A stretch of DNA of 57,494 nucleotides, counting the filler, from Dugesia japonica (taxonomy: Eukaryota), in the NCBI GenBank assembly GCA_001938525.1. It is 5 parts of 5 records of this genome, joined end to end, with 100 filler letters (N's around TTAATTAATTAA, not from the genome) between each part and the next. Parts side by side here need not be neighbours in the genome. Positions count along the whole stretch, not along the records: positions 1 to 9,524 come from MQRL01608810.1; 4 more parts are not named here. One strand, given 5' to 3'. The position numbers were made by a program, and so were the translations under genes. Below the pieces are notes generated by a model. The model made no database searches. It saw only the letters and a program-made list of their open reading frames with translations, and was not told the DNA's origin. This document shows, in pieces, positions 1 through 48,579 of the stretch (position 1 is the first letter of the stretch; each line of letters opens with the position of its first letter).

Positions 1-114
1 GCAATTATATAGTAAAAAACACACAAAATAATACAAAATTTCTTTTAAAAACGTAAAATTTCCTCAAAAATATTACTTTGAAATAAAAAATGTATTCTTT
101 AATTTAAAACATCT

Positions 115-300
115 TTTTGTGAAAATGTAATTTGTGAAATTTTAAATGTAATTTGTGAAATTTAAAATGTAATTTGTGAAATTTTTAAATGTAATTTGTG
201 AAATTTAAATGTCTTTTGTTACATAAAAAATATCTTTTGTGAAATTTTTTGTTACTTTAAATAATTATTGTCACATTTAAAATAAATATTGTGAAAATTA
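115..300. repeat. ~20-bp tandem repeat AAATGTAATTTGTGAAATTT
   Basis: At least 4 near-perfect copies at 123-210, with degenerate copies beyond. Confidence 0.8.
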
Positions 301-609
301 TTTAATATTTAATTTAATACAATCAATAAATTCATCATTTGACATAATTGTATAATTTTTTTTATTTTCAATTTTATTTTCAATTTTATTTTCAATTTTA
401 TTAAATCTATTCTCTAATGATTCAAATTTTCCATTGTTATCTCTTTTTGGAAGAATTAAAAAATTTTTTCTATTGTAAGGAATATTATATTGTCTTAAAT
501 ATTTTCTTATTGTTTGTTCATTTACTTTATGTTCTTTACAAAAAGATATAACAGAATTTTTAATAAAATCATAATCTTTTAGCATGTTATAAAAAGTACT
601 ATCATTCAT
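298..609 (-). CDS. Small hypothetical Polinton protein, possible helix-turn-helix
   Basis: 103-aa intronless ORF with TTATAAAAATG start context. The segment SVISFCKEHKVNEQTIRKYLRQY is HTH-like. Confidence 0.5.
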   Translation of the reverse strand: MNDSTFYNMLKDYDFIKNSVISFCKEHKVNEQTIRKYLRQYNIPYNRKNFLILPKRDNNGKFESLENRFNKIENKIENKIENKKNYTIMSNDEFIDCIKLNIK

Positions 610-634
610 TTTTATAAGATAAATTTTAAGATTA

Positions 635-735
635 TATTGTATCGTGTCGTATTATTGTATTGTATCGTGTCGTATTATTGTATTGTATTGTATCGTATTA
701 CCGTATCGAGACGCAGTGTGTGCCTTATCGTATTG
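635..735. promoter_or_regulatory. Putative bidirectional promoter with TATTGTATCGTGTCG-type repeats
   Basis: 157-bp spacer between two divergent ORFs, containing repeated (T)ATCGT/TATTG units. Confidence 0.35.
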
Positions 736-766
736 ATTTTTTTTTTCTAAATTTTTTTTATATAAA

Positions 767-1390
767 ATGGCAGCAAAAAAAAAGATGACATTAACAACTT
801 TATATGACACTGTTAATAATATAGAAAGTTTAGAAAAATTTAGTTTGGAAGAAATTAAAAATTTTAGTAAATTAAAAATTACAGAAAAACGTGCAAATTA
901 TTATTTTAATATGTTAAAATCAATGTATGAACAGATAGATGAAAATGGAGAAAATGAAAAATTTAAAGCTTTATTAAGTATTTTAGTAGTTAAATTTTGT
1001 GAATCAGATTGTAAAGGTATTATAATAGGAGAAATTGGTGTGTATAATAAAAGAAATATTGAAATAATTAAACAATTAGAAATTGATTATCAAAAAGAAA
1101 GAGATGAAGTAAATAGTTTAAGAACACAATTAAATATGGCATTGAAACCAAGTGAAATAAATCATCCTGCTTTAAAAATGACAATAGTAAAAAATGAAAA
1201 TAAACTTTGTTCATATAAAGAGTGTTCGGAAATTTTAAAAGAAGTATGTGATTATCCAACAAAATTAAATGAAAAATTAACTCGTGTAAAAGTTCCAGAA
1301 AAATATGAAAATAAAGTTAATAGAGTTTATTTAGGAAAAACTGAAGTTGGAAAAGGTGGAATTTTAATAAAAGATTCAAAATCTAAATAA
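767..1390 (+). CDS. Hypothetical Polinton protein (207 aa, central coiled coil)
   Basis: Uninterrupted ORF in very AT-rich DNA with TATATAAAATG start context. Divergent from ORF 298-609 and convergent with pPolB. Confidence 0.65.
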   Translation: MAAKKKMTLTTLYDTVNNIESLEKFSLEEIKNFSKLKITEKRANYYFNMLKSMYEQIDENGENEKFKALLSILVVKFCESDCKGIIIGEIGVYNKRNIEIIKQLEIDYQKERDEVNSLRTQLNMALKPSEINHPALKMTIVKNENKLCSYKECSEILKEVCDYPTKLNEKLTRVKVPEKYENKVNRVYLGKTEVGKGGILIKDSKSK

Positions 1391-1477
1391 AAATGTGAGT
1401 GGATATTTTAAGTGATTTTATTTTTATTTATAAAAATTTAAAGTTGAATTTTATTATTAATTAAATGTTTTTAATTT

Positions 1478-1655
1478 TATTGTTACTTGTTAGATTGTTT
1501 CATGTTTATTGTTTCATGTTTATTGTTGCTTGTTAGATTGTTTATTGTTTCATTTTACTTGTTTCATGTTTATTGTTTATCGTTGCTTGTTACATGTAGA
1601 TTGTTTCATGTTTATTGTTGCTTGTTACTTGTTTCATGTTTCATGTTTATTGTTA
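1478..1655. repeat. Degenerate tandem repeat TTGTTTCATGTTTATTG / TTGTTAGA between convergent gene ends
   Basis: Visible short-unit repetition. It produces the spurious Cys/Phe/Leu-rich ORFs at 1487-1715. Confidence 0.75.
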
Positions 1656-4600
1656 AAATACATTTGTAATAATTTAATTTTGTTAAATGTTAGATTTTCT
1701 TCTATTAAATTTTGACATGCTAATTTTTTATTTATTTTGTCAAGTCTTAAATGCCAGATTTTTTCGTTTATGGTTTCATTTTCATTTTCAATTTCATTTT
1801 CATTTTCATNNNNNNNNNNNNNNNNNNNNNNNNNNNNNNNNNNNNNNNNNNNNNNNNNNNNNNNNNNNNNNNNNNNNNNNNNNNNNNNNNNNNNNNNNNN
1901 NNNNNNNNNNNNNNNNNNNNNNNNNNNNNNNNNNNNNNNNNNNNNNNNNNNNNNNNNNNNNNNNNNNNGGTTACATTTCTCACATTCAAATTCATTTCCG
2001 TGTGGCCAAGTCCTTGTTGCATTATCTTCTATTATTCTTTTATCACTGTAACCTGTTAAAGCAATTTTCTTTTGTTGTGTTAATTTTATATCATGGAGTT
2101 CAGATTTTAGTGAATAATTTATTCCATAGATTATTTTCTTTGGATCTTTTAGAACTGAATCAAATTCTCGCATACCGATGGGATTGAAACTTTGAACACC
2201 TTTATGTTTCTTGTTAAAAGATATTTTGTTATCTTTATTTTGATATTCATATGCGTAAGATTTAGGTTTTATAAAATTGCATTTTAAAATTTCAGAATTT
2301 GGCATTTCATCTTTCATTTGGAAAAGATTATCACCAGTTAATGAATTTAGAATTTTAAGGTTATCTTCACCAAGAATCTCGATAAATACGGAATCCGTGT
2401 TTTTAATTATCAACGGAAATCCAGAGTTAAATGTTCCATCTTGAGTTTCAATGTCGTATACTTCTTCTTCGATTTGTCTTAGGAATCTTATATCTTGGAT
2501 CTTATATGAAATATCTTTAGGTTTTATTTCTTTTAATTTATATTGATTTGGAGTGTCTTCTGTAATAATTAAATTCTTACCTAAAGATGTTTCATGAAAA
2601 TATGCTGTGGCTAAAGATATTTTATCTTGATATGAATCTTGTAATATTGTATCTCGAAATTTAGAATTTTGATCTCGAAATGTTGAATCTTGAAATTTAG
2701 CATTTTGACATGTTTCTTGTAATGTTGAATTTTTATTTTTATTTCTAAAAAATTTAAATTTATTGTGTAATAATTCAGTTTCAAGTGTTACATCTTTAGG
2801 TTTAATTTCTTTACCTGTGATATCTAACAATGAATGGTCTTCTGTTACATCAACAATGCCGAGATGAGTTCTAACTCTGTAAATCTTTTTAGTAGTTGTA
2901 TGTTTTATAACTTTTTTCAATGGAACCCAGTTACTTTTAGTCCAAATTTCAAGATTTCCAGGATATGAATAATATTTTTCAAATTCGCATAAAGCAGTGT
3001 CGTTATCATGATCATTGTAATAATGTGGTGATATTTCAGAGATCATTTTTATCATTGGTTTTTTATCTTTTTTATTTCGAAGTAACACTGGAGTATCATG
3101 GGTAACAGAATCAGAATAATGAATTTTATAGTTATCTTTAATTTTTGGTTCTAACTGGTTATATACAAAATTATACATTACTTCTTTAGCATATTCTAGG
3201 ATAGTGAAACCTAGATATGGAAATTTGTTATATTTTAAATTAGTTTTCGCAAGATGTACTGCGCCCATTTTAGATACAATTTCATTGTTTAAAGTGAAAA
3301 TTTTAGAACTTAAATATGTAGGTTTAGCAGCTAATCTTAATAATTGTTTATCTGTTCCAACGATTTCGACATTACAACGGTTTCTGATATTTTCGAGGGT
3401 TTTACCATAGAACGAGTTGTTCATTAATTTGAAAAAGTCGACTCCAAATTCATCTTTGTTTCTTTTTGCTATTGATCTTTGTTCTATATTAAATAAAATG
3501 TAATCTTTTAACCATGTAGATACTGGAAGTTTATATTTTGAATGTATCTTTTTAAGTTTCATTCCTAGTTGTAGATATAGATCTAGAGTTGAACCTAGGA
3601 TGATATAATTTTTCTTGTTAAATTGGTTCATTGTTAATTTTATATTTTCTTTTGTTAATTTTCGTGTAAAGCTTAATTGATAATTAGATAACATTTCATT
3701 TGTGATAAGTATTCTATCAGGTGCTAGTGGGAAATATTTAGTTTTATCGTGGATTTCTCTAGGATAATCAAGATCAACTTCATATAGAAAATTAAAGATT
3801 TCAGTTGAAGGTTCATATTCTAACTTGGTACATTCAATGAATTCACCTGTTGGTAATGGTTTTGTCATGCAAGATGCATAAAGTGAATTTGCATCTAGAT
3901 ATTTTATATAAGTTGGTTTTATTAATTTATTGAGATGGTTATCTAAAAGTTCTAGATCATCAGCTAGAATTATATCAAGGAGATCTTCTTTTTGCGCTTG
4001 GTTTAATCTTCTAGATAGATCGCGGGATTTATCAAATGAAAATACTTGACGTTCACCTTCTTCTCCGGAATAGCCACCTCGTACTCCACGTTCAAATTTT
4101 AGAAATGTATTATAGGTTTTTGGTTTTGCATATTTTAATTTTTGTCTTGTAAATCTCATTCCCGCTTCCCATGTTAAACCCGGCGCAGTGTAACAATAGC
4201 ATGGATCTATTTTATAAAAGTTTAAACATAATACACGAAAGTTTTCAACATAATCTGCGAGAATTAATACATCAAGTTTCATGTAATGTAGCATGTATTG
4301 CCATAGATTTTCATGATGTGAAAAGTCTTCTAAGAATTCTTGATATTCTTGATCAGAGATTCCTTTTTGTTTGAGAACTGTATAAAATTCATCTTGAGTT
4401 GGTATTTTATCAGATTTTAATAATTGCATAACTTCATTCGCATTTTTACCTGTAACATAGTCATATGGAAAAAAGATTTTCTTAGGTTTAAGATTGAATG
4501 AATCCAGTATTTTATGATTATTTATTTTTCCTAGTGTTATTCCCATTTTTTCGATGGTCGTTGGGCATAATCGATATGAATCTAAGAATCTAATATTTTT

Positions 4601-6313
4601 ATATTGAAATGAGATATATTGATCATCGGAATGTGGAATTACTTTTCTTATTTCATTTGGATGTGAATATAAAAGTTGTCTGAAGAATAAATGATTCTCA
4701 TAGCCCATTGCATTATGGAAATAAAATGGGATAAATAGATTGCTTTTAGATTTATCTTGAAGATTGCATTCAGAATGTGCATAACCGCGAAATTCTCCTG
4801 TAAAATGATTATGATCCATTACTGGAGCTGTTGTTGTTAGTTTTTCACAATAGTAACAGTTTTCATTATTATATTCTGGAATGTCTGATGTGCATTCTAA
4901 TTTTAACTTTTTAAAAATTATATCTTTAAATTTTAAATTAATATTTTCAAGGAACTTGATAAATTCATTAACAACATGTTCACCTGAGAACAGATAATAT
5001 TTAGATTCCATGAGATTATTATATTCACTGTGAAGATAGACACCTAGAGATATTGCTTCTTGAGATTTATTTTCTTTTGTGTAAGCTTCGAAATCACCAT
5101 ATAGAATGAATGGTATTTTATTTTTAAAATAGTTCTTTTTAAATTCGAAATAATCTTCTATTGGAAATTTTACTTCAGCTGTTTTCTGGTGGATGCATTC
5201 TTGTTGATGTTTAATTAGAACTTCTTTAGATGAAGATTGATTCATACAACCAAGACATAATTTATTTTTATAAGATGTGTTGAATAAAATTTCAACATTT
5301 CGAACAAGTGAATAGTGATTTTTATAAATTAAGAGATTACATTTATTTTCTTCTGGTGAAGGTTTTGTTTCATAATGTGAAATATAAAGTGATGATAGTT
5401 TAATTTTATCATTTAACTCGAAAACATTTATTTTGTAATCATTTAATTTTTCTAGTTTTTTGATATCATCGATTCTAGCAGGAAAATTGATATTAGTTAT
5501 TTTTAATTCTGATAGATGTGGAATATAATTAGTAACTCTTCTCGCGTTATGAAAAATATATTTATGTGCAAGGACAGAATACAATAAACATTTGTCATCT
5601 TTGTTTTGTATATTAACAATGCCATATTTTTTTGAAAATGGTTCTGGAAGTTCACAATACGTTCCACCTCGTTTTTTATTTTTTTCAAATTTTATTACTT
5701 CAAAATTATAATCAACAATATGATCAATTGTCCAGTTAGATTCTTTCCTTTCTCTTTCATCTATAAAATTTTGCACTTCTTCTATCATCTCGTGTATTTT
5801 ATCTTTAAAACAATCAGATGTATAAATTTTTCTTATTCTTGTGTATGAGTAGTATAATGAAGTGACATCTTCTTTTTTATATAAAGTATTGATGCCAATT
5901 CGTATTTTAAATCTTTGTTCCATTAAATTAAAATCTCGTGTTATTTTTTCTAATTCTGGTAAAATTGGTAATACTATTTTTAATTCATATTCTGAAATGT
6001 TTCTTCCAATTTCTAGTTTTCCATTATTTTGAATTTTAATTTTGTATCCAGGATATGAATTTTCATTAAAGATATCCACAATTTGTAATCCATTTCCCGG
6101 GTCAATGTAATCTTCATCATCACTTTCGCCACATGCGGTTTTTTCCAGATGAAGTTTATAATAATAATCCGTTTTAAATAACTTTTTACATAAGGCACAT
6201 TCAATGTAATCTTCTAAAGAAATTGTATAACATGTTTTAGATCTTACATGTGAATTTAGTGCACTTTGCGTTTTAAATGTTTTATTACAATTAGTACAAA
6301 TATACATGGCCAT
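1634..6313 (-). CDS. Protein-primed family B DNA polymerase (pPolB) precursor containing an intein
   Basis: 1559-aa ORF. Motifs: ExoI ILYGDFEA, ExoII FHNAMGYE, ExoIII YMKLDVLILAD, Pol A YLDANSLYASCM, Pol B KLMNNSFYGK, Pol C YSD/TDS (split). Also N-terminal Zn fingers and CYYC..DHNHFTGEFRGYAHSECN. The C-terminal tail spans an N gap (1810-1968). Confidence 0.95.
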   Translation of the reverse strand: MAMYICTNCNKTFKTQSALNSHVRSKTCYTISLEDYIECALCKKLFKTDYYYKLHLEKTACGESDDEDYIDPGNGLQIVDIFNENSYPGYKIKIQNNGKLEIGRNISEYELKIVLPILPELEKITRDFNLMEQRFKIRIGINTLYKKEDVTSLYYSYTRIRKIYTSDCFKDKIHEMIEEVQNFIDERERKESNWTIDHIVDYNFEVIKFEKNKKRGGTYCELPEPFSKKYGIVNIQNKDDKCLLYSVLAHKYIFHNARRVTNYIPHLSELKITNINFPARIDDIKKLEKLNDYKINVFELNDKIKLSSLYISHYETKPSPEENKCNLLIYKNHYSLVRNVEILFNTSYKNKLCLGCMNQSSSKEVLIKHQQECIHQKTAEVKFPIEDYFEFKKNYFKNKIPFILYGDFEAYTKENKSQEAISLGVYLHSEYNNLMESKYYLFSGEHVVNEFIKFLENINLKFKDIIFKKLKLECTSDIPEYNNENCYYCEKLTTTAPVMDHNHFTGEFRGYAHSECNLQDKSKSNLFIPFYFHNAMGYENHLFFRQLLYSHPNEIRKVIPHSDDQYISFQYKNIRFLDSYRLCPTTIEKMGITLGKINNHKILDSFNLKPKKIFFPYDYVTGKNANEVMQLLKSDKIPTQDEFYTVLKQKGISDQEYQEFLEDFSHHENLWQYMLHYMKLDVLILADYVENFRVLCLNFYKIDPCYCYTAPGLTWEAGMRFTRQKLKYAKPKTYNTFLKFERGVRGGYSGEEGERQVFSFDKSRDLSRRLNQAQKEDLLDIILADDLELLDNHLNKLIKPTYIKYLDANSLYASCMTKPLPTGEFIECTKLEYEPSTEIFNFLYEVDLDYPREIHDKTKYFPLAPDRILITNEMLSNYQLSFTRKLTKENIKLTMNQFNKKNYIILGSTLDLYLQLGMKLKKIHSKYKLPVSTWLKDYILFNIEQRSIAKRNKDEFGVDFFKLMNNSFYGKTLENIRNRCNVEIVGTDKQLLRLAAKPTYLSSKIFTLNNEIVSKMGAVHLAKTNLKYNKFPYLGFTILEYAKEVMYNFVYNQLEPKIKDNYKIHYSDSVTHDTPVLLRNKKDKKPMIKMISEISPHYYNDHDNDTALCEFEKYYSYPGNLEIWTKSNWVPLKKVIKHTTTKKIYRVRTHLGIVDVTEDHSLLDITGKEIKPKDVTLETELLHNKFKFFRNKNKNSTLQETCQNAKFQDSTFRDQNSKFRDTILQDSYQDKISLATAYFHETSLGKNLIITEDTPNQYKLKEIKPKDISYKIQDIRFLRQIEEEVYDIETQDGTFNSGFPLIIKNTDSVFIEILGEDNLKILNSLTGDNLFQMKDEMPNSEILKCNFIKPKSYAYEYQNKDNKISFNKKHKGVQSFNPIGMREFDSVLKDPKKIIYGINYSLKSELHDIKLTQQKKIALTGYSDKRIIEDNATRTWPHGNEFECEKCNXXXXXXXXXXXXXXXXXXXXXXXXXXXXXXXXXXXXXXXXXXXXXXXXXXXXXXENENEIENENETINEKIWHLRLDKINKKLACQNLIEENLTFNKIKLLQMYFNNKHET
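2399..3109 (-). mobile_element. Mini-intein (237 aa, precursor residues 1069-1305) inserted in Pol motif C
   Basis: Block A SVTHDTPVLLR, block B VDVTEDHSLL (TxxH), block F EEVYDIETQDGTF, block G PLIIKN followed by Thr+1. Removal restores YSDTDSVF. No intact LAGLIDADG motifs. Confidence 0.95.
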
Positions 6314-6349
6314 TTTATATAGTAATTATTTAATCATGTTTATATTTTT

Positions 6350-7728
6350 TTGAGTAAATTTGGATGAGTAAATTTGGAATTTTTATTTTAGATTTTTTAT
6401 TTTTAGATTTTTATTTTAGAATTTTATTTTAGATTTTATTTTAGAATTTTATTTTAGTTTGGGTGAATTTGGAGTGGTATGTTTTATTTTAATTTTTATT
6501 TGAGAGAATTTGGAGTGGTATGTTTATTTTAATTTGTGACATGATTTATTTTAATTTTTATTTGCGACATGATTTATTTTAATTTTTTATTTGAGTGAAT
6601 TTGGGGTGGTATGTTTTATTTAAATTTGACACATGATTTATTTGAATTTTTATTTGAGTAAATTTGGAGTGGTATGTTTTATTTTAATTTGAGACATGAT
6701 TTATTTTAATTTTTTTATTTGAGTGAATTTGGGGTGGTATGTTTTATTTAAATTTGTCACATGATTTATTTTAATTTTTATTTGTGACATGTTTTATTTT
6801 AATTTGTGACATGATTTATTTTAATTTTTATTTGTGACATGATTTATTTTAATTTGTGACATGATTTATTTTAATTTTTATTTGTGACATGATTTATTTT
6901 AATTTGTGACATGATTTATTTTAATTTTTATTTGAGAGAATTTGGGGTGGTATGTTTTATTTAAATTTGTCACATGATTTATTTTAATTTTTATTTGAGT
7001 GAATTTAGGGTGGTATGTTTTATTTAAATTTGTCACATGATTTATTTTAATTTTTATTTAAGTAAATTTGGAGTGTCATGTTTTATTTTAATTTGCGACA
7101 TGATTTATTTTAATTTTTATTTGTGACATGATTTATTTTAATTTGTGACATGATTTATTTTAATTTTTATTTGAGAGAATTTGGGGTGGTATGTTTTATT
7201 TAAATTTGTCACATGATTTATTTTAATTTTTATTTGAGTGAATTTGGGGTGGTATGTTTTATTTAAATTTGTCACATGATTTATTTTAATTTGTCACATG
7301 ATTTATTTTAATTTGTCACATGATAAAATTTTAATTTGAGTGAATTTGGAGGTTTCATTTTTAATTAAATTTGTCACATGATTTATTTTTAATTTAATTT
7401 GTTGAATTTATTTAGTGAATTTAGAATGAGACATGTTTAAATTTTAGATTTGAATTAAAAAAATGCGCATGATAAATTGTTACATGTAAAATGCGCAAAC
7501 ATTTATTTAATAATATGTCTAAATTTATTTGAAATGAATTGGGGATACCCCTTTTTTGAGTGAATTTGGATGAGTGAATTTGGAGTTATCATTAAATATG
7601 GTAAAATAACACGTGATTTTTGAATTTTCATTTCGGTACGGTAAAATAACACGTGATTTTTGTATTTGTCACGTGATTTTTCTTTACCATACTGCACTTG
7701 AGTGAATTTGGGGTGTTTTATATCTACT
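6350..7728. repeat. Polinton subterminal/TIR repeat array
   Basis: Interleaved modules GAGTGAATTTGG(G/A)GTGGTATGTTTTATTT and TTTGT(G/C)ACATGATTTATTTTAATTT, many copies. The first motif recurs right up to the terminus. Confidence 0.85.
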
Positions 7729-8345
7729 CCTACTTTATATAAAGATTTTTTTATAAGGAACATAAATAATTAGGAAAGAACTAAAATATTAATTAACAAA
7801 ATAATATATGATTAAGACAAAACATCAACAATAGTTTATATTCGTTTATAACAAANNNNNNNNNNNNNNNNNNNNNNNNNNNNNNNNNNNNNNNNNNNNN
7901 NNNNNTATATATATATAAATTGAAAAAATTTTATCGAATGAAAATTTTTTTAACATTTGCGTAAATTTACAAATATTTAAATATAAATACCTACTTTATA
8001 TAAAGATTATTTTATAAGGAACATAAATAATTAGGAAAGAAGTAAAATATTAATTAACAAAATAATATATGATTAAGACAAAACATCAACAATAGTTTAT
8101 ATTCGTTTATAACAAAAAATTCATAATTTATAAATTATTAATTTGAATATTTTCTGTTGACCAATACTTAACGATAAGATACTTTAATATATACAAATAT
8201 AAATAACTATAATAAATAAGATTTTTTGAGGATAAATAATAAATTAGTTAATTAAAAAAATTAATAATAGATAAATGTAGAATATAAAAGTGTAAATAAT
8301 AATAAATTATGCGTTTTTAATAAATAATAACTATAATGAAGAANN

Positions 8346-8392
<47 letters not shown>

Positions 8393-9568
8393 AANAAANA
8401 AATAAANAAANAAAATAATATATTTGTAAAATATTTAAGTATAATATATTGCAATATATAACTTGCTTTTAAATAATGTAATAAGTTAATTGATGATTAA
8501 TAATAAAAAAATGAAATGATTTATCATTTGCTAAGCTTCTCGCGGAAGTATTTGAAACTACACTTTTCTATATCAATGATTGCTCCCGATTAAAAAGTCA
8601 ATTTTTTTCATATTTTCATAATTCATTATAATTTTTCATTTTTACATTATTATGACTACATTAAGAACGTATATATTATTATTAATAGTTATTTAAATAT
8701 TCAATTATCTAATTTATCAATGGTAATTCTTCAAGATGTGGGATATTAGAAAATAAAAGAAAACGTCTGATATATCTTACCTATCCGGATAAACTATTGG
8801 ATTATTAATTATCATTTGATAAAGTAGGAATCTGTTACAGTTCTCATAAGGAACCTATAATTAAATCAATGAAATCATTAAACGTAAAAAGTAATTAACA
8901 ACCTTTCCATATAAGAATGCAAATAGTGTGATCCCCAATGCCCAAATATCTAAGGCCTATACAATTTATAATTATTAAATTATATTCAATTAAGAAAAAT
9001 TTTAATTATTATATTTATTAATTATCAACTTTATTAGAAAATGATATTAACTATTATATTATTATTTTNNNNNNNNNNNNNNNNNNNNNNNNNNNNNNNN
9101 NNNNNNNNNNNNNNNNNNNNNNNNNNNNNNNNNNNNNNNNNNNNNNNNNNNNNNNNNNNTATCACACACATAATTTAATGAATCACTGTTTTTTAAATAT
9201 AAATAGTTTAAGTTATCTCACAATATATTTCATTTTTTCTTTCAGTTTTATCAGTGGATATCGTTTTAAACAATTTATTTATATCCATATATTTTATGAA
9301 TGAGATCATATTAGATAAAAATTACTGAAATTTCATTGGATTAAATTAAAAATTCATTTTTCATAAATTTATATGTATATATATATATATAAATATATGT
9401 GTGTTTTTGTGTATGTGTGTCTTTGTGTGTTTATATAAAAAACAATTGAAAGATGAAAAATCATTACAGACTCAGTACAAGTGTTAAAGTCATTATTAGC
9501 TAATACTAAAATACTTTTTCCTATNNNNNNNNNNNNNNNNNNNNNNNNNNNNNNNNNNNNNNNNNNNN

Positions 9569-9580
9569 TTAATTAATTAA
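9569..9580. other. Artificial scaffold linker TTAATTAATTAA
   Basis: Six-frame-stop 12-mer embedded in N runs; identical at four places in the window. Confidence 0.95.
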
Positions 9581-9625
9581 NNNNNNNNNNNNNNNNNNNN
9601 NNNNNNNNNNNNNNNNNNNNNNNNT

Positions 9626-11429: not shown

Positions 11430-12629
11430 TTATTGAAATTTTATTCCTAGTGCCCTTCGTTCGATTAACTTCCGACACATAGGGTATTCATTTAAGTTTA
11501 TAGCACAATTATATCAAAATTTTTTGAAATGTCCACATGGTAAAAATACGACCTCGATGGTTTCCACAAGGCAGATCACACAATCATGATCAAGCAATAC
11601 CCATTCTTGTTCATATTTTTCCTGGGGTTCTACTGATCGAAGTGATATTTGATATAATTTGAATAGTGTGATTAACTCGGTGCCTTTCTCTGCAACCGTT
11701 TGTTTTAATAGCTGTTTGATAGTTAACTGATCTAGTTTTAAGATATTAGACAGCCGGTTGACCTGTAATTCAACTGCCATTTCTATTCTGTGGCTAGACA
11801 TATTCCATTCTATTTTACACGTGGTTGGCTTTATTTCTCCCTTATTGATTTGATTTAGTCTTGAGCCTGTTACTCTATGGAATATCGTTGCTGGTAATTT
11901 TTCTATTCCTTTTAATATCAGAGTTTCTCGGTTGCAGGTAGTGCATTTGACAACTTTGTCATTCGCCTTTCGGACGAGGTATAATCCGTCCATTGTCTTG
12001 TCTTTCAAACCTGGTAATTTTTTAAATGTTTTCTCTCTTTCTTCGATATTCCATTCGAGATCTTTTCGTACGTCTACTTCTGCTAAGTTCTTTATAATTT
12101 TACAATATAACTTCTTTGGTTCAATTGTTGTTTTTTCGTTTTCGGGGTTTCTTCCCCTAATTGGTTGAGCTTTGTTATTTACGTTTACATTTAGTAGAAA
12201 AGGACAGGTAGGAAACCACTTCCTATGTGCTCTATTAGGTTGCTCGTTCTTACCCCACATGTGTAGTAAACCTTGACAATATATGCATTTCACTTTATCT
12301 GGTCGCTCCGGGGTACCGACATAGTAAAACCCAGATTTGGCTAAAGCTTCAATCAGTCCATATAGATATCTAGGTAATTCGGATAGTGATTTCTTTCTTA
12401 TGTTTTCGTCACGATATTTTTCGTCGAAAACTTTTATCGTACTATAACACACTCTCTTCCGTATGAAATTTTCTGGTACTGCAAATAAGTTGCAGTAGTG
12501 CATTATGTTTTGTGTTACTGAAGTTTGCTTGACTTCCTCTAGTCCTTTGCTCATACCAAATAATTCAATGTCCGAGTCATTCATTATAATTCTGGCTTCG
12601 TTTGTTGATAAGTCCAAATCGAATTCCAT
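11430..12629 (-). pseudogene. Inhibitor-of-apoptosis (IAP)-like gene: BIR, degenerate BIR, RING
   Basis: BIR: EALAKSGFYYVG..DKVKCIYC..LHMW....AHRKWFPTCPFL. Second BIR-like: REKTF..GLY..VVKCTTC..H. RING: CVICL..VVFLPCGH..(TGA)YNC..YPMCR, read through the TGA at 11516-11514. Intronless. Confidence 0.9.
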
Positions 12630-13434: not shown

Positions 13435-13539
13435 TCCTAAATGCGAAACGTTGATTAGTTTCACCGTTATTTCTATTTACATATATAGTTATTAAACAAG
13501 TTTACAATTTACACTATTTACACGTAGTTTCCTTCTATT

Positions 13540-15240
13540 TTAACACACTAATATACCCGGTGCCTGATAAGGTCTAGGCACATATGTGGGTACTCCGCTC
13601 ATTACTGGCCCCAGTGGTAATCCTTCGTAATTTGGTGGAGCTAGTGGTAGATGATGTCTTTTCCGATTATGTTTCTTTGGTTTGGGTCTTGTTTGCTTAC
13701 AGAATTGCACATACAATGTGATTAATATCAGTACCACTATTAGTATGCTCCCTATTATTGCTATATTGTCTGTTCCAGTTTTGGTTGGTACAGAGGTGGT
13801 TACTGGCTCCTTCATGGTAGTGGGTCCACCCCCTATCCTCATGTGATCTTCCGGTGGTTGGTACTTCCTCAGATTTCTCATTAAGTTGTTTAGAAAGTTG
13901 GTTCTTTTTGTTTCCTTTTCTTTGTTGGGAGCTGGAATTGGTGTTTCTGTTGCTGTTGTTGTTGTGGTTTTTTCTGTATTGGTTGTAGTTCTTATTTTAA
14001 TCTTTGGTCTAGTGATGTTCAGTTTTATTCTGACATCTCGATTTATAACTGTTGTGAATTCCATTTCCCACATTTCTGGTCCAAAACTACCCATGTTCAC
14101 TCCTTGTTCATGTAACGCATTTTCTTTGAATCCTGATATTTCTTCATTATACGCCCATCCCCATTGAGCGGTTGAATAGTATTTCTGTGCCGTTAATTGT
14201 TCCTTTTTCTCGTTGGTCCATAGTTGATATGTTTTGTTCATTTTTTTGATCCGTACAGGTCCTGGACCTTCCTGCCAATGAGAACCCCATTTCCCAAATG
14301 TGTATTTCGTTACCGAGTGGAGTCCTTTTCCCCGATTAATGGCTACACCTTTTTGCTCCCTAAATACCCGTTTCTTATCTGTGGATTCTTGGACTATATT
14401 CTTCCAAAATTGAATAGGGAATATGTATTCATTCTGTGGGCAGATTTTCATGCTCTCGTCTCCTTTCCGTTCCCATACCCATCCTCTCTGTCGTGGGTTT
14501 TCTATGATTTAATAAATTAGGAGATTGCGGGCCTGATGCATGTCAAAATTTATTTGGTGTTCTTACTCGCCCTGATCTCTTTTGCGTGTTCCTTGAATTT
14601 CTTGTGTTGCATACATCCACCAGTCCTTCATGTTGAAATGCATTGCCTGACCTTCCACCGGTGCGTCTCATTTAAACCATAGGCTTGCTGTCCACCCATA
14701 CCAAAATAGTAATATTCGACTTCCTTTGGATCCTTCAATGGTAGGTTTTAGCAATATCAACTCGCATCTGTATCCTTCAAAAACTTTTATTTCCCGCTTT
14801 CGCCCGTCTGTGCTCATTGTTCGAATGGTGGTTTTGTGGTCGTCGACACAGACCCTATGTTCTGTTAATATTAGCTCGTTGGTCCAACAATCTTGACATT
14901 TAATCCCCTTCATCACGATTATTAAAATAGTGAGTATGACTTGTCCGTTAGATATTCTATTCTGATTTAAGATCTGTATTTGTTGAATTGCCAGAGTTGG
15001 CAATGCCAACCCAAATAGGATTATCCCTGCAATTCCATATAGCATAATTGATGTTGGACAATCTTTACCCATATTCCCGATTACTTTTATGGTTAACCAG
15101 ATTAATATGCCATAGTCCAAATTTGTGTTGACTACTGCCCATAACAACAAAGAGATTTTAATTATTATTTCCAATGTAATCTCATTCTTGTTTCTTTTGG
15201 TGGACTCGTTTTTTGATTTTCTTGGTTCTGTTTGATCCAC
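13540..15240 (-). pseudogene. Membrane protein region of the polyprotein: hydrophobic segments, Trp-rich ectodomain, Thr-rich stalk, TM helix, PPxY tail
   Basis: ORFs 14668-15240 and 13540-14451 are in frame, separated by three stops. Signal-like VILTILIIVMKGIKC, stalk TTTNTEKTTTTTATET, TM IAIIGSILIVVLILITLYV, tail PPNY. Confidence 0.6.
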
Positions 15241-15246
15241 CTCATC

Positions 15247-16158
15247 TTATATCATTGTCATTTCCATATCTTTCGCCTTTCCCGGCGTTACTCTGACTAA
15301 TTGTCTTTCTCTTCCTTCTATTCCATCTCTTTGGAATTGGAATATTTCTCCTATTGACTTTATTTGTTTTTCCAAGCCCTCCTGTGGATTCATGATACTG
15401 CTTGGTTTAGATTTCCTCCGGTCCAATTTACTTTGGGTAGCTGGTGTGCTCATGCTCCCTGGCAATTGGATCTTCAATGGTTCGTATACTCCAATCCAGT
15501 TCCATTGTACTAGTGTACCGTGAAATAGATGGATGGATGTTAACAATTCTTCACTGCATATTTCGACACAAGATAAACACAACTTTTTTAAGGTGGATTG
15601 CCGGATAGGTGCTTCAATTGGTAGTTCGATTTGTGACCCTTCACAGTCTTTTTTGAACCAGTTTTCTCGTCTTGATAACCATGTTTTCTGGTCGTAAAAA
15701 GCCTTTATAGTGATTTTTAGTATAATTATACATTGTGTACAGTTTCTTTCTAGCTGAGTTAGTGACAGTGGACATTTTATCTTTTTGATATGGGCACAAT
15801 TCTCCTCTGTTCTCGGTATTTGGATTCCTTGATATATGATTGGATAGATTGTAGTGGCGCTCATAGCCTCTATCATAAGTGGTCTGTGCATTTGGTTACC
15901 TTAATTAAAAGATATTGTTTTAGCTTTTTGTTTCATAACGATTTCTTTATTATTAACCAATGCCACACTTTGCTGTCTTTGCTGAGATTGAATATTATTT
16001 GGTGTATGTTCGATTCTCCTCAATTTACTTGTTTGTTCTATCACCAAGATACCTGGTGGGGTATTTATGATTGTATTATTCTCCTTAGTTTTTTCCTGGT
16101 TGACGGCGTGTTTAGAATCATCTGCCTTTAACACCCTATTTATCTTTTGTAATTCTGA
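15247..16158 (-). pseudogene. Post-integrase polyprotein extension with a Cys/His-rich domain of unknown function
   Basis: In frame with the integrase. Contains CAH..C..CTQC..C..CLSC..C..H..H. Confidence 0.45.
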
Positions 16159-17610
16159 TTATGTACTTTCTGAATTTGCAGCAGGTAGACTCGTTTCTTG
16201 TTTTACCGTCTCCGTTATTGACCCTTCCCCGTTTCCTTCAAACTCAGCGTCCTCGCTGAGACCGTTTTTCTTTATTATTGTTTCTGTACTCTTCCCTGAT
16301 GAGAGATTTATTCGTGGTTTTCTAAGTACCATCATGGCTAGTTGTGATCGTAATGGATAGCTGTGTGATATATTCAGTTCTAGACTCTCCGACTTGCGTG
16401 GCCTACCTGGCCCTCTACGTTCCGTCGTAGTAGGCTCGGCGCTTGTGGCTGGCACCACTTCTTCTGTCACCGCTGCCTTTTTGCACAAGTTAGCGTGGTA
16501 TATCTTTGGTTTCTCTAATAGGTTCCCTTTCTTTCGAACCTTGAGATTAGTTTCCGTTACTTCAATTACGTCATAAGGTCCTTGCCATGGCCTTTGTAAT
16601 GTTGATGTCGTACCGACACAAATTTCCGGTAAATTTATCAATACCATGTCGCCTTTTTTGAAGGAATGTTGGGCTGCTGATTTATCATGTAAATCCTTAT
16701 AGCTCTCCTGGTAGAATCCGACATTCTCCTTGGCTTGTTTCCATATTTTCTGCATGGTCTCCTTGAAATTTGCCGCAAAATCGGTTTCGTCTTGATATTG
16801 TGTTATTGGTGGTTGGTATTCCAGGTCAATAGGCATGTTGCATTCTCTGCCATACATGAGACTAAATGGAGTATATTTTGTGGCAGGATGCACACTCATT
16901 CAGTAAGCGAATAGACATAGCTGAATGTGTTTATCCCAGTTATTCTGTTCCTTTTGTGCATAACTAGACAACATATTGATTAGAGTTTTATTGAATCTTT
17001 CTGTTAATCCATCCGTCTGTGGATGATAAGGTGATGTCCGCAACTGGTGTATTTTGAGAAAGTTTGATATTTCTGCTAATATATTACTCATGAAGTTTTT
17101 TCCTTGGTCAGTCAATATTTTCTTGGGTGTACCATATCTACTGAAAGATTTTCGTACCAAAATGTCTGCTATTGTGGTTGCTTTCTGATTCTTCGTCGGA
17201 AATGCCTCTGGGAATTTGGACAGATAATTCATTATGGTAAGTATGTAAATATTCCCACTTAGCGTTGGTGGTAGTGGTCCTACCACGTCCATAGCGATAA
17301 TTTCCATTGGGGCTGCTGGTACCGCGATTAATTTTAATAACACTTTTACTCTTTTGCCTGTTTCTCTTTTGGCCGCACATATTTTACATTTAGCAATCCA
17401 TTCTTTTACTGATTCCGTCATATGTGGCCAATAATATTTCTGCCTTAATTTGGATTCGGTCTTCTTATGAGACATGTGTCCGCCGAGTACACTATTGTGA
17501 TATTGCTCGAGTAATTTATCTCGCCTTGCTTTAGGGATAACTAACACGGTATTATCTCCGTCCTGAGCTGTCAGCCATTCTTTAGTGAATGCATATCGTC
17601 CGCCATTGCT
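16159..17610 (-). pseudogene. Gypsy integrase (HHCC, DDE core, GPY, AT-hook)
   Basis: H..GGH...CKIC; IAMDVVGPLP; ILTDQGKNF; PYHPQTDGLTERFN; PWQGPY; RRGPGRPRK. One in-frame TGA at 16902-16900. Confidence 0.95.
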
Positions 17611-17614
17611 CTTT

Positions 17615-18330
17615 TCCTTTATCTGATATCAGATGTCCTAAGTATGTCACCTTATTTTTGGCCCATTCGCATTTAGTAGGTTTCACTTTTAAGTTCCGTT
17701 TACGAAGTCTTACAAACACACTACGTAGGTCATTGAGGTGTCCTTAAAAGGTTGGCGAATAGATTAGCAGGTCATCGTATATACGCCATACATTGAGATA
17801 TACCATGTGTTACGTAATTCATCATGCGTTGAAAAGAGGCTGGTGCATTGGTAAGCCCAAATGGCATACGGATAAATTGATATAAGTCTTTGCCTGTGGA
17901 AAAGGCCGTTTTCTCTCTATCTTCTGGTTTGATTTTTATTTGCCAGTAGCCGCTTCGCAAATCCAAATATTTTAGCATTATATAGTAATTGCAATAATTC
18001 GTTGATATCTGGCAATGGATATGTGTCTTTCTTACTTTGGGCATTTAATCTTCTGTAATCAATGCAAAATCTTTGTGTGCCATCCTTTTTATCTACTAAC
18101 ACCACTGGCGATTGCCATGGTGAGCAGCTAGGTTCTATTACCCCGATTTTTACCAATTTGGCTGTTTCCTTATTTGCAAATTCTTTTTTCTCCACTGTCA
18201 TGGCGTATGGTTTCTGTTTGCACGGGGTTTCATCGGTTAGTGGAATGGTATGCATCGTCGCTGTGCACATACCCAGCTCTTCATTGGTCCATGCAAAAAT
18301 GTCTCTAAATTCCTCTATCAGTTGCAATAT
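17615..18330 (-). pseudogene. Gypsy reverse transcriptase, frameshifted; thumb and RNase H deleted
   Basis: SPWQSPVVLVDKKDGTQRFCIDYRRLN, LDLRSGYWQI, KTAF, RMPFGLTNAPASFQR, frameshifted AYI/DDLLIYS, KCEW..VTYLGH. The sequence then jumps directly into integrase-proximal sequence. Confidence 0.95.
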
Positions 18331-18739
18331 TGGTTGTTTCTGGTCTTCTGATAAAGTTTCCGTCTCTACTTTAAATGTTCTGTCGATTTCTGGTTCAGTG
18401 GCTATTTCTTCTATCACTTCGAGCTCCGGTTCGATGGGGGTTAGGGTACCCATCCTGGAGTTTGGCTTGATTGTGATATCTTTTTCTGTGAAATTAACTT
18501 AACTAACTGGTACTTCCCCACTTTTGTTGACCGTGGTTATTCCTCCTGCTGTCGGTAGCTCGTACTGGTGTGCAAATCCGTCATACGGTTCGAAATAACA
18601 ATCTCCTTCATAGGCACTTTTGGTACTGACTACACAATATACTTGACATCTACTAGGTACCAAAATCTTCTCTGTAGTGAATACTTCATGATCCTTCACA
18701 TGGGTATAACCTTCCAATGATTGTAATCGTAATGTTGAG

Positions 18740-19050
18740 AAGTTTAATATACAGTTTTTCATCAGAACGGGAAGAATGTCTATTCCTAGTATACACTGTC
18801 TCATCATTTCTACTATGATCATATTGTGTTTAATTCTATCATCCNNNNNNNNNNNNNNNNNNNNNNNNNNTCCAAAAATTTTGAGGCTACTACCATTTGC
18901 TACATCTGCTGTAGTATTTGTGGGTAGTATGTTTTTGTACTCGGTTATTGCAATTTCATCAATTGAAAACAACGATATGGTTGCTCCTGTGTCCAATAGA
19001 GCTGTTATAGGTCGGCAGTTGATTTTAACCATAATGGTTAATACTGGTCC
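18740..19050 (-). pseudogene. Retropepsin (aspartic protease) domain 2
   Basis: ALLDTGATISL...ANG...CILGIDIL. Confidence 0.9.
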
Positions 19051-19339
19051 ACCGTTGAAACCTGCGCAAACCACATCTGAAGAGTTTGGACTGATGTTTA
19101 ATTGTGTTTTGTTTTTCCATTTTGGTTCTCGTTCTTGAAACCGTATCCAATCGTTCCTTATCATGGTGTTTGTATTGGTATATCTCCGATGGTCTTGTGT
19201 TGGGTTATTTCGTTCATTCTGGCCGGTTAAGCGTTGCTGCAGCTGGTTGGGTGTTGGTTGATTCCATTGTTGTGGTCGCTTCAATTTAGTTATTATTCGA
19301 GTTTTCTGGTAGCTTATCGGAGAATACTACTGATCATAA

Positions 19340-19670
19340 TTTTCCCGTATTGTTAATTTTCTCAAATCCAATATTCCCTCCGGACACAGGCGTGGCAGAA
19401 GATCCAATCCTAATAAACAGTCGAATGCTAATTCATTCATTATCTGCACTTTATGCCAGAACCGTGTTCCGTCGCTTTCTATTGCACATATTGCTTCTCC
19501 AATGGGTGAGATTTTTTCTCCAGAGGCCGTGATAATAACTCCTTTATTGATTGTTATTCTAAGCAGACGATAATCTTCTAATATCATTTTGTGGACTAAC
19601 GTCGTACTTGCCCCGGTATCAATGATAGCTTTTACCCAGTTTCCGTCGATTTTTATCCTTTTCTGTAATA
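19340..19670 (-). pseudogene. Retropepsin (aspartic protease) domain 1
   Basis: AIIDTGASTTL...TASGE...CLLGLDLL. Confidence 0.9.
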
Positions 19671-20309
19671 ATTTTGCTCTCTGAGAAATCATTATACATA
19701 CCATCTGGGTTTCTAATTTATGATCCTCAGCGATTTGGTTATTCGGGGAACGCAAGTTTTGATTGGTCACTCTTTGGTCCATAGTTGATACATTATTCTC
19801 TGTTAACAGGGCCACATTGGGAGCTTGTGGTGGACTTATATACGGGTTGTTGTATAGGGGACCTGGTGCCCATACTTGTTGGGATGGTTGGTTCATGGGT
19901 TGCCAATCATATTGTGGATAAGCGTTATAATACATTTGTGCTGGTGCTGGTGTGCTTTCTCCTCCTCCGAATCTTAGCGCGTTTTTCAGTCGTTGCATTT
20001 TGCTGATTTTTTCGTATTGCTGCCTTTTGAATTCCAAATCGTATTCCATGGAAGTTTTATAACTAGGTACATGAGGTGTTCCACTGCTTTCTCCTCTGTC
20101 ATCGTCGCTGCTACTACTACTTTCATCTTTATTCTTAAACCGTTCTTTGAACTGGTTAAAATATGATATTTTCTTTTTAGCATTGCTCATTTCTTCGCAT
20201 AATAATCGGAGTTTCATTATGACCTCCTTGTCTGATCCTCTTATTTGTCCGAGCTTCCGAATGAATCTCTTTACTCTGTCGATGTCTTTGGAGTGACTAT
20301 TAANNACCA

Positions 20310-21098
20310 TAGTTTTGGCTAAAAATGGAAATATTCCTGTTACCATTTTCCAATTCACCTTTTTCTCTCTTTTGTATATATCAAGACATGCGAACAATTG
20401 AGTAATCACTACCCGGGTTACCGAAATTATCAGCATAACCCCCAACAATCCTGCCATTGCTTGACCAAATATTATAAATCTTCCCCACATTTTCCGCATG
20501 ACATTTTCGGTGGCTTTTTGGAAATGATCCGCGGATAAGAGTGCATCGTAGTTTACCCGTCCATCCATGTTAGTCCCACTGGTTAGTTGTACTATGTTTG
20601 ATAGAATCTGCATCCTTCGGACTGGAAATAACATATATTCTCTGGCTTTCTCTAAGTCTTCTTTACTATAGATTCTTCCTTTATTTACGTCGATTGGGGT
20701 GAATTGCATACCCCGTTTAGTCGTAACATTGAAAATTTTCGTGGTTCGACTCCTACTGCCATTCGTTGAGGAAATCCTATCCATGAAAAATCTGTCATTT
20801 CGTATTGTAGTCCAAATACATTGGAGCAATTTATGATATTCGGCCTATAGCCCAATGGCGATATTTTTCGAGTGATTGGTTGTACATACCGCTTTTCATT
20901 GTTGTGGATGATTTCTATCTCGTTGTAGCAGTGCTTTGGATTGGAGGAAAATTCTGCATCTATCACCTTGCATTTGTATAGGTACATTACCTCCCCTATC
21001 ACTCGACCGAATTGTCCTTTCTCCAACGGAAGTAGTGGGGTGACACTATCAGGGTTTGTAACTGCCATCGCTAATTTTGTTTTTAATTTATTTTTTTT
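20310..21098 (-). pseudogene. C-terminal half of a chuvirus (Jingchuvirales)-like glycoprotein / env
   Basis: GEVMYLYKC..V..CYNE....YVQPITR..G...C....Y...W, then after a frameshift near 20720: G.IYS.EDL..AR.YMLFP.RR and MWGRFIIFGQAMAGLLG plus TM. Pattern recognised from chuviral G proteins. The 5' part is cut by the scaffold end. Confidence 0.75.
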
Positions 21099-21142
21099 NN
21101 NNNNNNNNNNNNNNNNNNNNNNNNNNNNNNNNNNNNNNNNNN

Positions 21143-21154
21143 TTAATTAATTAA
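21143..21154. other. Artificial scaffold linker TTAATTAATTAA
   Basis: Same 12-mer within N runs. Confidence 0.95.
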
Positions 21155-21713
21155 NNNNNNNNNNNNNNNNNNNNNNNNNNNNNNNNNNNNNNNNNNNNAT
21201 CGATGGGATGGATTGTCGTTGTTGATTAGCTAAATTAAATGACGAAAACACTTATTATGATTCGATTTGTCATAATTGATTCAACTCTGCTTTTTATGGC
21301 AACCCCCGACTATTCAAAGAATCTCTCATTTTGGGAACAGGGTTTTATCGAGAAATTTACACCAGGGTAATATGTTAGACCAGTCAGGGTTGCATCTAAA
21401 CAAATTAAGGGAAGTTCCAGGTAGGATCCAGACGCGACGACTCAAAATGTNNNNNNNNNNNNNNNNNNNNNNNNNNNNNNNNNNNNNNNNNNNNNNNNNN
21501 NNNNNNNNNNNNNNNNGGTTAAAGAGCGTTATTAATCATTTAAATAAGAATACTCGTAATGTCCATTTATGGAAATTGAATTTATTTCTGCTATATTATA
21601 TTGTTGGGTATTATTGAGTATATAAATCGGTAAACCGGATAATTTACACTCGGGTAATCGAAATTCTACTAAGTCTAAGTTATTAGGAATTATAGCATAG
21701 CAATATTAACAGG

Positions 21714-29458: not shown

Positions 29459-29901
29459 CCCTTCTATACTGAAATCACTCTTTTTATTAATTTCCTTATT
29501 TCCTATAATACTACAAATTGAAAAAGGCAGATTAGTATGTTTAATAGATGAACTATTAAAAACTACAGGGCGCTGCCAATAATTATTAATATATTCATTG
29601 TTTTTTTTATTTTACATGGATTTTTCGATACCTGTAATCAAAAGAAATTATCTTTGTTAATTATAAAAACTTTTAATACCAGAAAAATAAAATAAGTAAA
29701 ATATTTATTTTCATTCATAAACATAAGTAATTATAACTTCGCAATTTTTTTATTTGAAAGAGCTTCTAAAATAACTCTTCTTCTCAAACTCAATTCAATG
29801 GATTACCATCATAGTAAATAAAATGAATTTTAATATAATAAAATTTTTTTTAATTTANNNNNNNNNNNNNNNNNNNNNNNNNNNNNNNNNNNNNNNNNNN
29901 N

Positions 29902-29913
29902 TTAATTAATTAA
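29902..29913. other. Artificial scaffold linker TTAATTAATTAA
   Basis: Same 12-mer within N runs. Confidence 0.95.
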
Positions 29914-40100: not shown

Positions 40101-40324
40101 TCTTTTGCCAGCTCAAATTTCATTAAATGGATTATCATGGTGTCCACCAGATCCAATAATTCAGGATAATTTTTTAGTAGCCCCTAACCAAAATGAACCG
40201 CAATATAATTTGAGTTCTGAGTTATATTCCTGTCACGAAGATGGCTCCGTCATAAATTGGATACTTCCACAAAACACTGATGCTATTCTAGCTTTAAAAT
40301 CAGATCCTATTTTCCCATATGGAG
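31728..40324 (+). CDS. lgl: Host lethal(2) giant larvae / tomosyn-family WD40 gene, 5' part. Exons 31728-31835, 31916-32013, 32063-32144, 39537-39913, 39957-40324
   Basis: GT-AG introns with consistent phases give MTQSIF...IEDFGSIPEPSCLDYDDKLSLLAIGSKKGLIKIFGHPGI...NKLILW...HLLIGYRSGL...SCHEDGSVINW...FPYG, matching the Lgl/STXBP5 N-terminus. Later exons not identified. Lgl versus tomosyn is not resolved. Confidence 0.85.
32353..32402 (+). pseudogene. 5S rRNA-like 5' fragment (~50 nt)
   Basis: GTTGGCGCTCATACTAAGCTGAGTACACTCGATCTCGTTTGACCTCGGAA matches the conserved CATAC...CGATCTCGT.TGA.CTCGGAA pattern of animal 5S. The 3' half is absent. Confidence 0.65.
35858..36570 (+). pseudogene. IS630/Tc1-like transposase remnant
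   Basis: HTH LKYETVRSIINKFKKLGR, first catalytic region LFFDETG, and SRNKTVMACMWKGGLIHYK. Stops present. Confidence 0.55.
37074..37134. repeat. (TAT)n/(AAT)n microsatellite; similar tracts at ~8346-8385, 41422-41600, 44411-44622, 46871
   Basis: Direct observation. Confidence 0.95.
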
Positions 40325-40395
40325 GTGAATATTTAATGAAATGTTTGTATTATTTATAATTAGCAATCGATAAAATGATAGTGTTTAGTTGACGC

Positions 40396-48479: not shown

Positions 48480-48523
48480 NNNNNNNNNNNNNNNNNNNNN
48501 NNNNNNNNNNNNNNNNNNNNNNN

Positions 48524-48535
48524 TTAATTAATTAA
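48524..48535. other. Artificial scaffold linker TTAATTAATTAA
   Basis: Same 12-mer within N runs. Confidence 0.95.
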
Positions 48536-48579
48536 NNNNNNNNNNNNNNNNNNNNNNNNNNNNNNNNNNNNNNNNNNNN

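Follow-up and report, generated by a model that had tools for sequence, protein, structure and literature searches.

Evidence for a Polinton Insertion and Its Empty Allele, and for a Mini-intein in the Polymerase of the Element, in Dugesia japonica

INTRODUCTION

When a transposable element adjoins host DNA on one side of an assembly gap, and the same host DNA reappears on the other side behind unrelated sequence, are the two alleles of a single insertion being seen, or merely an accident of assembly? This question is raised by a locus of Dugesia japonica (assembly GCA_001938525.1). The window, that is, the whole stretch of DNA analysed here, is 57,494 nucleotides long, filler included, and consists of 5 parts of 5 records joined end to end; the locus lies in the first part (positions 1 to 9,524, from MQRL01608810.1). 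The original prediction, made from the sequence alone, held that a Polinton ends exactly at position 7728, that the contig behind the gap is the haplotype without the insertion, and that the insertion is young and heterozygous.

Polintons are described as copying themselves by means of a family B DNA polymerase that is protein-primed (pPolB) (PMC6431247), and rve-type integrases as producing 6-bp duplications (PMC12220804). Assignment of the present element to this group rests on four features, all of which were found: a pPolB, a terminal inverted repeat, a 5'-AG end and a 6-bp target-site duplication. We present evidence herein that, very probably, a Polinton/Maverick inserted at CCTACT on one haplotype, the filled and empty haplotypes stand in tandem across a 50-N gap of the assembly, and the pPolB of the element carries a mini-intein in motif C. 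Since polymorphic Polinton insertions are already known from insects, the junction part of this work is confirmatory, and the intein is what it adds.

MATERIALS AND METHODS

Public data were used as assembled contigs, not as raw reads. Six of the 12 listed runs, in three studies, contain the stretch, and four of them (X1, X2, X3 and X6) were compared by aligning their contigs to 7450-8310; a share of 0.00 in six further runs of the same label or study says nothing about absence. X1 and X3 represent one sample and X6 a third; X1, X2 and X3 may be the source material of the assembly itself, or the same line. Loci with related polymerases were found by alignment-based scans and number 103 (the best 80 of 476 metagenome loci, plus 23 viral contigs); single-protein scans for such loci gave no matches. 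An unrooted tree was built from 49 inteins, 47 collected by pattern and 2 by hand. Divergence since insertion was bounded under a simple neutral model, for which the transition and indel rates were assumed values.

RESULTS

A Duplicated Flank at a 50-N Gap

The prediction started from a flank of about 127 bp that occurs twice, with two differences and behind unlike sequences, and this observation was reproduced. Within the window, CCTACTTTATATAAAG has two exact occurrences: the one at 7729 is preceded by ...TATATCTACT, the one at 7990 by ...TTTAAATATAAATA. The copies span 127 nt and mismatch at two positions, 7748T/8009A and 7781C/8042G (blastn E 1.9e-61), and there is no third copy within the window. 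The features concerned are as follows.

7729-7734, plus strand: one copy of the target-site duplication CCTACT (sequence; filled-junction contigs 7699-7778 in X2 and X3)
7729-7855, plus strand: downstream host flank of the insertion-bearing haplotype (127-nt alignment and public contigs)
7856-7905, no strand: scaffold gap of 50 N that joins two overlapping haplotype contigs, a feature of the assembly
7906-7989, plus strand: upstream host flank of the empty haplotype; a version of it with 3 substitutions stands next to the element's other end (public contigs)
7990-7995, plus strand: single unoccupied target site CCTACT (sequence; public contigs and k-mer logic)
7996-8116, plus strand: remaining downstream host flank of the empty haplotype, a duplicate of 7735-7855

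A gap of 50 N is presumably the minimum gap of the assembler. Because a duplication was found across all seven gaps of exactly 50 N in the window, such overlaps are the way in which the assembly writes two haplotypes. Matches across the other gaps of at least 20 N (n = 21) were simple repeats or pieces of the same seven overlaps only, and at four other 50-N overlaps the haplotypes diverge by 29 substitutions in the 1155 nt compared. In six of the seven, the right-hand copy begins at the gap edge; at gap 7856-7905 alone, 84 nt of unrelated DNA (7906-7989) stand ahead of it. An unmatched head at just one 50-N gap is the pattern expected from an insertion on one haplotype. Further downstream, position 8122 is C in the window and T in the long contigs that X1 and X6 have for the empty allele, and the post-gap contig may be a haplotype mosaic.

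Both Junctions and the Empty Site in Public Contigs

Contigs 7699-7778 span the filled junction in two of the four runs (X2 and X3), and contigs cross 7989/7990, as the empty allele does, in all four, that of X1 with 1102 nt more on the upstream side. At k=31, coexistence of the two alleles predicts contig ends at precisely 7699, 7778 and 8039, where they were observed. The junction predicted for the other end of the element was looked for in these contigs and was found: 7728 is joined to 7995, on opposite strands and with 0 overlap and 0 extra letters, in X1, X2 and X3 (two samples, two studies), the shorter side being 84 nt in X1 and 30 nt each in X2 and X3. This joint is the other end of the element, inverted, directly after the CCTACT of the upstream flank.

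The other-end contigs show three mismatches to the empty flank, of which one is listed, at 7954. As the X2 contigs are unbroken and have no 31-mer in common, the remaining two fall in 7923-7938 and 7965-7985. All three thus lie outside 7990-7995, so that the target-site duplication is 6 bp and perfect; at the other end its perfection rests on alignment coordinates and k-mer reasoning rather than on a letter-by-letter reading. Junctions at 7728/7729 and 7995/7728, with one CCTACT in the empty site, constitute the 6-bp duplication typical of Polintons.

The placing of the exact element end at 7728 (5'-AGTAG on the minus strand) was therefore upheld by the reciprocal junction, which joins 7728 in three of the four runs, and the choice of CCTACT as the duplicated target by the other end joined, inverted, right after 7995. 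That the post-gap contig is the haplotype without the insertion agrees with the empty-site contigs of all four runs. The flank is not a multicopy repeat, its depth at 8001-8029 being that of a single empty-allele contig in four of four runs, and the duplication is present at the other end; these were the two points on which the prediction had been staked. A longer element end taking in CCTACT was excluded, since the empty allele has CCTACT and the other end begins directly after it.

CCTACT happens to end in the last five letters of the element itself (7724-7728), which makes the other junction a palindrome, CTACT/AGTAG. The chance of this coincidence is about 5e-4 per orientation, given the flank composition, for a single case noticed post hoc. 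It may hint at an integrase preference for end-like target sites that end in CTACT.

Termini of the Element

The window begins inside the element, which runs off its left edge; in the part included, no integrase, ATPase or capsid gene of the element was seen. At the right-hand end, two features precede the junction.

6314-7449, no strand: subterminal stretch without coding sequence, containing tandem sub-repeats whose units measure 13 to 63 nt or multiples thereof
7450-7728, minus strand: terminal inverted repeat, the part present at both ends (X1 contig)

On the minus strand, the element starts at 7728 with 5'-AGTAGATATA. Its first letters, 5'-AGTAGA, supply the 5'-AG end and agree at 5 of 6 positions with the (AGT)2 motif of PMC8097293. 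One X1 contig contains 7450-7728 with 0 differences and runs on for 84 nt into the opposite flank; the terminal inverted repeat is thus at least 279 nt long, in the 100-1500 nt range of Polintons. Region 6314-7449 is probably for the most part inner terminal inverted repeat. The terminal 19-mer had 0 exact matches in viral contigs.

At 7696-7728, a second family was observed, at a depth of 13-46 versus 3-7, that has the terminal 33 nt with 2-3 differences and a different interior, and in X2 and X3 TA repeats lie beyond its end. It is probably a sibling or non-autonomous Polinton that targets TA runs. At 7552-7569 and 6315-6387, contigs of X1, X2 and X6 are similar, not identical, to the sequence immediately upstream of where pPolB starts; they may represent the inner boundary of the inverted repeat at the opposite end, or else a sister element.

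The Polymerase, Its Intein and a Neighboring Open Reading Frame

Three coding features lie to the left of the terminal region.

767-1390, plus strand: 207-aa open reading frame that converges on pPolB
1634-6313, minus strand: protein-primed family B polymerase (pPolB), open reading frame of 1559 codons (PF03175, DNA_pol_B_2)
2399-3109, minus strand: class 1 mini-intein of 237 aa, residues 1069-1305 (alignment, TIGR01445, structure model, Foldseek)

The polymerase matches PF03175 with E 3.1e-15 (56.5 bits, cutoff 25.8), has 0 stops in 4344 N-free nt, and also possesses a zinc finger, as well as an insert resembling endonuclease VII; its relatives are 30-38% identical over the N-extein. The frame at 767-1390 is probably a gene of the element, with no Pfam family, no NCBIfam family over cutoff, and no match in the 103 related loci. 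Four of the related viral loci were scanned, over 25 of the 42 ORFs listed for them: all four have an A32 ATPase and two a double-jelly-roll capsid protein, and two (L083 and L094) have rve integrase matches just below the Pfam cutoff. An rve match at 16900-17475 was excluded as the integrase of the element, being part of a retrotransposon outside it.

The intein splits motif C between YSD and TDS. Class 1 inteins are described as having characteristic nucleophiles and helper residues in blocks B and F, some of them without a penultimate His (PMC4031507). The core set (Ser or Cys at 1, Asn, Ser, Thr or Cys at +1, Thr and His in block B, Asp in block F) is complete here, with Ser1, block B TxxH (TEDH), block F Asp (VYD), C-terminal Lys-Asn and Thr+1. 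Lys takes the place of the penultimate His, an assisting residue that is not universal; the 47 pattern-matched sequences, out of 121 proteins, end in KN (41), HN (4) or SN (2). The insertion is in frame, at a conserved motif, and is missing from homologues: DTDS is uninterrupted in 95 of the 103 related loci, and neither the intein nor the terminus of the element was found in any of the 103. Judged from these sequences, the intein is rare in this pPolB lineage.

TIGR01445 (intein_Nterm) is matched at 27.7 bits (cutoff 24.5), Pfam Intein_splicing with a score under its cutoff. A structure model computed from 48 sequences has a mean pLDDT of 85 and a pTM of 0.82, with a disordered linker at 131-157; Foldseek gave it 28 PDB matches at E<=0.001 (best E 1.1e-6, TM-scores about 0.3-0.7), those listed being inteins or intein-like domains, which suggests a Hint fold in the model. 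A PDB search by sequence gave weak matches (best E 0.007). Two internal deletions take out both LAGLIDADG motifs, and the intein has no LAGLIDADG Pfam match. It is thus not a full-length homing intein, and it cannot home. From its residues and modelled fold, we infer that the polymerase would be spliced from a precursor.

Six database pPolBs, P0001-P0006, contain this motif-C intein in its full-length form (337-354 aa), with LAGLIDADG retained in all four of those scanned (P0001, P0003, P0005 and P0006). P0002, catalogued with the genome of a bacterial symbiont, is likely host DNA. As none of 145 further representative intein matches has a polymerase like that of the window, the intein-bearing pPolBs rest on these six database proteins. 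In the tree, the window intein clusters with five pPolB inteins (100/99) on a long branch, and P0005 is placed elsewhere; the remaining 42 inteins belong to other polymerases, which were classed as RNA-primed on the basis of PF00136 and by exclusion. Given the long branch and the unrooted tree, the direction of transfer is not indicated by the tree.

Allelic State and Age

Filled and empty alleles are found within the same run in X1, X2 and X3. The depths, which are contig depths and not copy numbers, are 3.8 (filled), 2.6 (other end), 3.5 (empty) and 6.5 (shared repeat) in X2, and 4.7, 3.4 and 4.68 for the first three in X3; they would be compatible with one copy on one of two haplotypes. The X1 repeat contig has a depth of 4.7, not the double haploid level predicted for a two-ended single copy. 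The filled junction is absent from the X1 contigs listed, a hole in the contig data rather than a true absence. In X6, neither junction is among the contigs listed, though 7450-7646 and the empty allele are present and the listing leaves out 48 pieces and 33 loose ends, contigs proving presence and not absence; 7954T, the allele linked to the insertion, has a depth of 0 of 11.3 there. There are thus hints that X6 is a sample without the insertion.

The empty haplotype carries 7954C, 8009A and 8042G. Compared with the filled allele, it has 2 substitutions in the 127 nt of downstream flank and 3 in 88 nt of the upstream flank, or about 2.3% (5 in about 215 nt). Since this is close to the 29 in 1155 seen elsewhere, the empty allele appears to be a separate haplotype and not an excision product. 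The source would be a single diploid animal, heterozygous at this site, or a line in which heterozygosity is fixed, and may instead be a pool. The word "heterozygous" in the original prediction agrees with finding both alleles at similar depth within one run; a pool, or a clonal line of fixed heterozygosity, would fit as well.

The term "young" agrees with an intact ORF and a perfect duplication, and its bound is loose: under the neutral model, the 95% upper limit of divergence since insertion is 1.7% from stops only and 0.6-0.9% with frameshifts. The 0 differences in the other-end repeat carry little information on age, because the two repeat copies collapse in assembly. The insertion would thus be recent on the scale of local allelic polymorphism, which does not prove present-day activity. 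Of the claim that the intein-bearing element was recently mobile, the element's own movement stands, possibly by the enzymes of a helper; the intein, its endonuclease deleted, has no mobility of its own.

Other Features of the Window

Outside the element, a degraded second pPolB, distant (24-37% identity) and with a broken frame, lies at 27219-28735 (minus strand), an old Polinton fossil. A broken LTR-retrotransposon-like region at about 13500-21600 (minus) contains protease, reverse-transcriptase-like and integrase pieces, together with a fragment of a Monjiviricetes-type fusion glycoprotein (E 1.6e-19). An intronless 371-aa ORF with BIR and RING domains (IAP-like) occupies 11514-12629 (minus), its best relative 35% identical over 96% of the length. 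Host exons at 39537-40359 (plus) are 59% similar to an LLGL-domain protein (Lgl/tomosyn family), and Pogo/Tigger-like transposase remnants (CENP-B_N, HTH_Tnp_Tc5) are found at 51656-53440 (plus), partly duplicated by two 50-N overlaps. The Lgl/tomosyn-like exons, the protein with BIR and RING domains and the retrotransposon, which bears an env gene, suit an animal host. An identical pattern of 44 N, 12 bases and 44 N recurs at 9525-9624, 21099-21198, 29858-29957 and 48480-48579.

DISCUSSION

The most probable course of events would begin with a staggered cut at CCTACT, made by an integrase of the retroviral type; integration would double the 6-bp site on both sides, and the assembler would later have written first the filled and then the empty haplotype across a 50-N gap. 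The evidence for the junctions is unusually complete, covering the empty allele, the duplicated target and each end of the element. An ordinary uncollapsed haplotype overlap or a misassembly, by which the assembler itself joined the element to the flank and there is no insertion polymorphism, is extremely improbable. Overlaps do occur at seven of seven 50-N gaps in a very gappy assembly, but contigs assembled independently also contain the empty site and the two junctions, offset by exactly 6 nt, and a misjoin would not produce a reciprocal junction; the exception would be chimeric molecules common to all three runs. We give just as little credence to a precise somatic or germline excision from the same chromosome, which would make the empty allele something other than the ancestral unoccupied one. 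Perfect excision leaves a single CCTACT, as in the empty site, and both forms are found in one run; the flanks, however, differ both upstream and downstream in the manner of two haplotypes, and depths near 1:1 in X2 and X3 also suit two alleles. Less remote, yet still unlikely, is paralogy: the two forms would stem from a duplicated segment, or be homeologues if the animal is polyploid or hybrid, with the insertion fixed in one and not necessarily segregating. A flank divergence of about 2.3% suits a recent duplication too, both alleles are present in two samples, and flank parts of about 30-35 nt resemble sequence elsewhere (loose ends at 7971/7972 and 8065). Nonetheless, divergence of this level and gaps of this pattern are found throughout the window, and X6, with its zero depth of 7954T and no junction listed, points weakly in the same direction, as contigs speak for presence and not for absence.

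Another question is whether the element moved by its own means. The insertion might be real and recent and the element non-autonomous, its intein-bearing polymerase inactive, with a helper Polinton having provided replication and integration. We consider this rather doubtful, though it is the least improbable of the alternatives. In its support, the second, deeper family has the terminal 33 nt with few differences, the intein is absent from all of the loci with related polymerases, and Polintons without polB are described as remaining mobile (10.1101/2025.02.07.637071). On the other hand, the polymerase frame is free of stops over 4344 nt, all core splicing residues are retained, and the endonuclease was deleted in frame, a trace of selection for splicing.

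We favor an autonomous or helped insertion on one haplotype, in which the polymerase would be made as a precursor and removal of the intein would rebuild the catalytic motif. Splicing would proceed by an acyl shift at Ser1, attack by Thr+1 and cyclisation of Asn; the polymerase could alternatively be supplied by a helper. The intein, its endonuclease gone, would now merely be carried along with the element. On balance, we lean toward a broader reading, with moderate confidence: a splicing-dependent Polinton recently entered the germline of an animal and is still segregating, with a nuclear, inherited metazoan intein that was kept after endonuclease loss because the spliced polymerase is needed; the intein family would be shared with RNA-primed family B polymerases, probably those of large DNA viruses. 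The presence of this intein family in Polinton polymerases at two separate places of the tree would point to co-infection of the same cells. Some iridoviruses infect animals.

The locus thus offers an intact-looking Polinton whose insertion would postdate the split of two haplotypes, and it lends itself to PCR typing in a species for which public data exist. With its split catalytic motif and its recent mobility, the element would allow natural protein splicing in the replication of an animal transposon to be tested, and a common parasite, the intein, would tie Polintons to large DNA viruses.

Compared with known Mavericks/Polintons (adintoviruses, polintoviruses), as described for the vertebrate (PMC8097293) and nematode (10.1101/2023.08.22.554363) sets, the element is alike in having a pPolB beside a terminal inverted repeat, a 5'-AG end and a perfect 6-bp duplication. 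Its repeat of at least 279 nt falls in the range of 46-1447 nt reported in PMC8097293; its end, AGTAGA, differs from vertebrate (AGT)2 or (AG)3 (PMC8097293). The polintons of insect pangenomes (10.1101/2025.02.07.637071) likewise show presence/absence insertions with inverted repeats, read as recent activity; those were called across several assemblies, whereas both alleles are contained in one assembly here.

The intein sets the element apart. The nematode Polinton paper reports HNH and VSR inserts, with 0 mentions of "intein" in its accessible text (10.1101/2023.08.22.554363), in contrast to the motif-C intein found here. Homing-endonuclease inserts in polinton pPolBs, proposed as intein invasions (PMC11161782), are named in the available text by their endonuclease domains, with no Hint domain splitting a motif. 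A survey of eukaryotic inteins covers, in its available text, fungi, algae, amoebozoans, choanoflagellates and large DNA viruses, including iridoviruses, with no animal nuclear genomes and no Polintons (PMC5784728). In sources that were mostly open-access main text (including PMC11161782, PMC12220804, PMC3671162, PMC5718144 and PMC5784728), we found splicing domains reported neither from motif C of a Polinton polymerase nor from the nuclear genome of an animal; Repbase-type annotations may hold an earlier record. The database pPolBs P0001, P0003, P0005 and P0006 retain LAGLIDADG, a domain that the window intein lacks. The closest parallels are otherwise the motif-C inteins of RNA-primed family B polymerases (PF00136) and the viral DNA-polymerase inteins of Phycodnaviridae, Iridoviridae and Mimiviridae listed in PMC5784728, with the same insertion point (D/TDS or D/TDG), Ser1, Lys-Asn and 33-47% identity to the intein region of the window, for which a Hint fold is likewise predicted by the model. 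Unlike in these RNA-primed and viral cases, the host protein here is the protein-primed polymerase of an integrated element.
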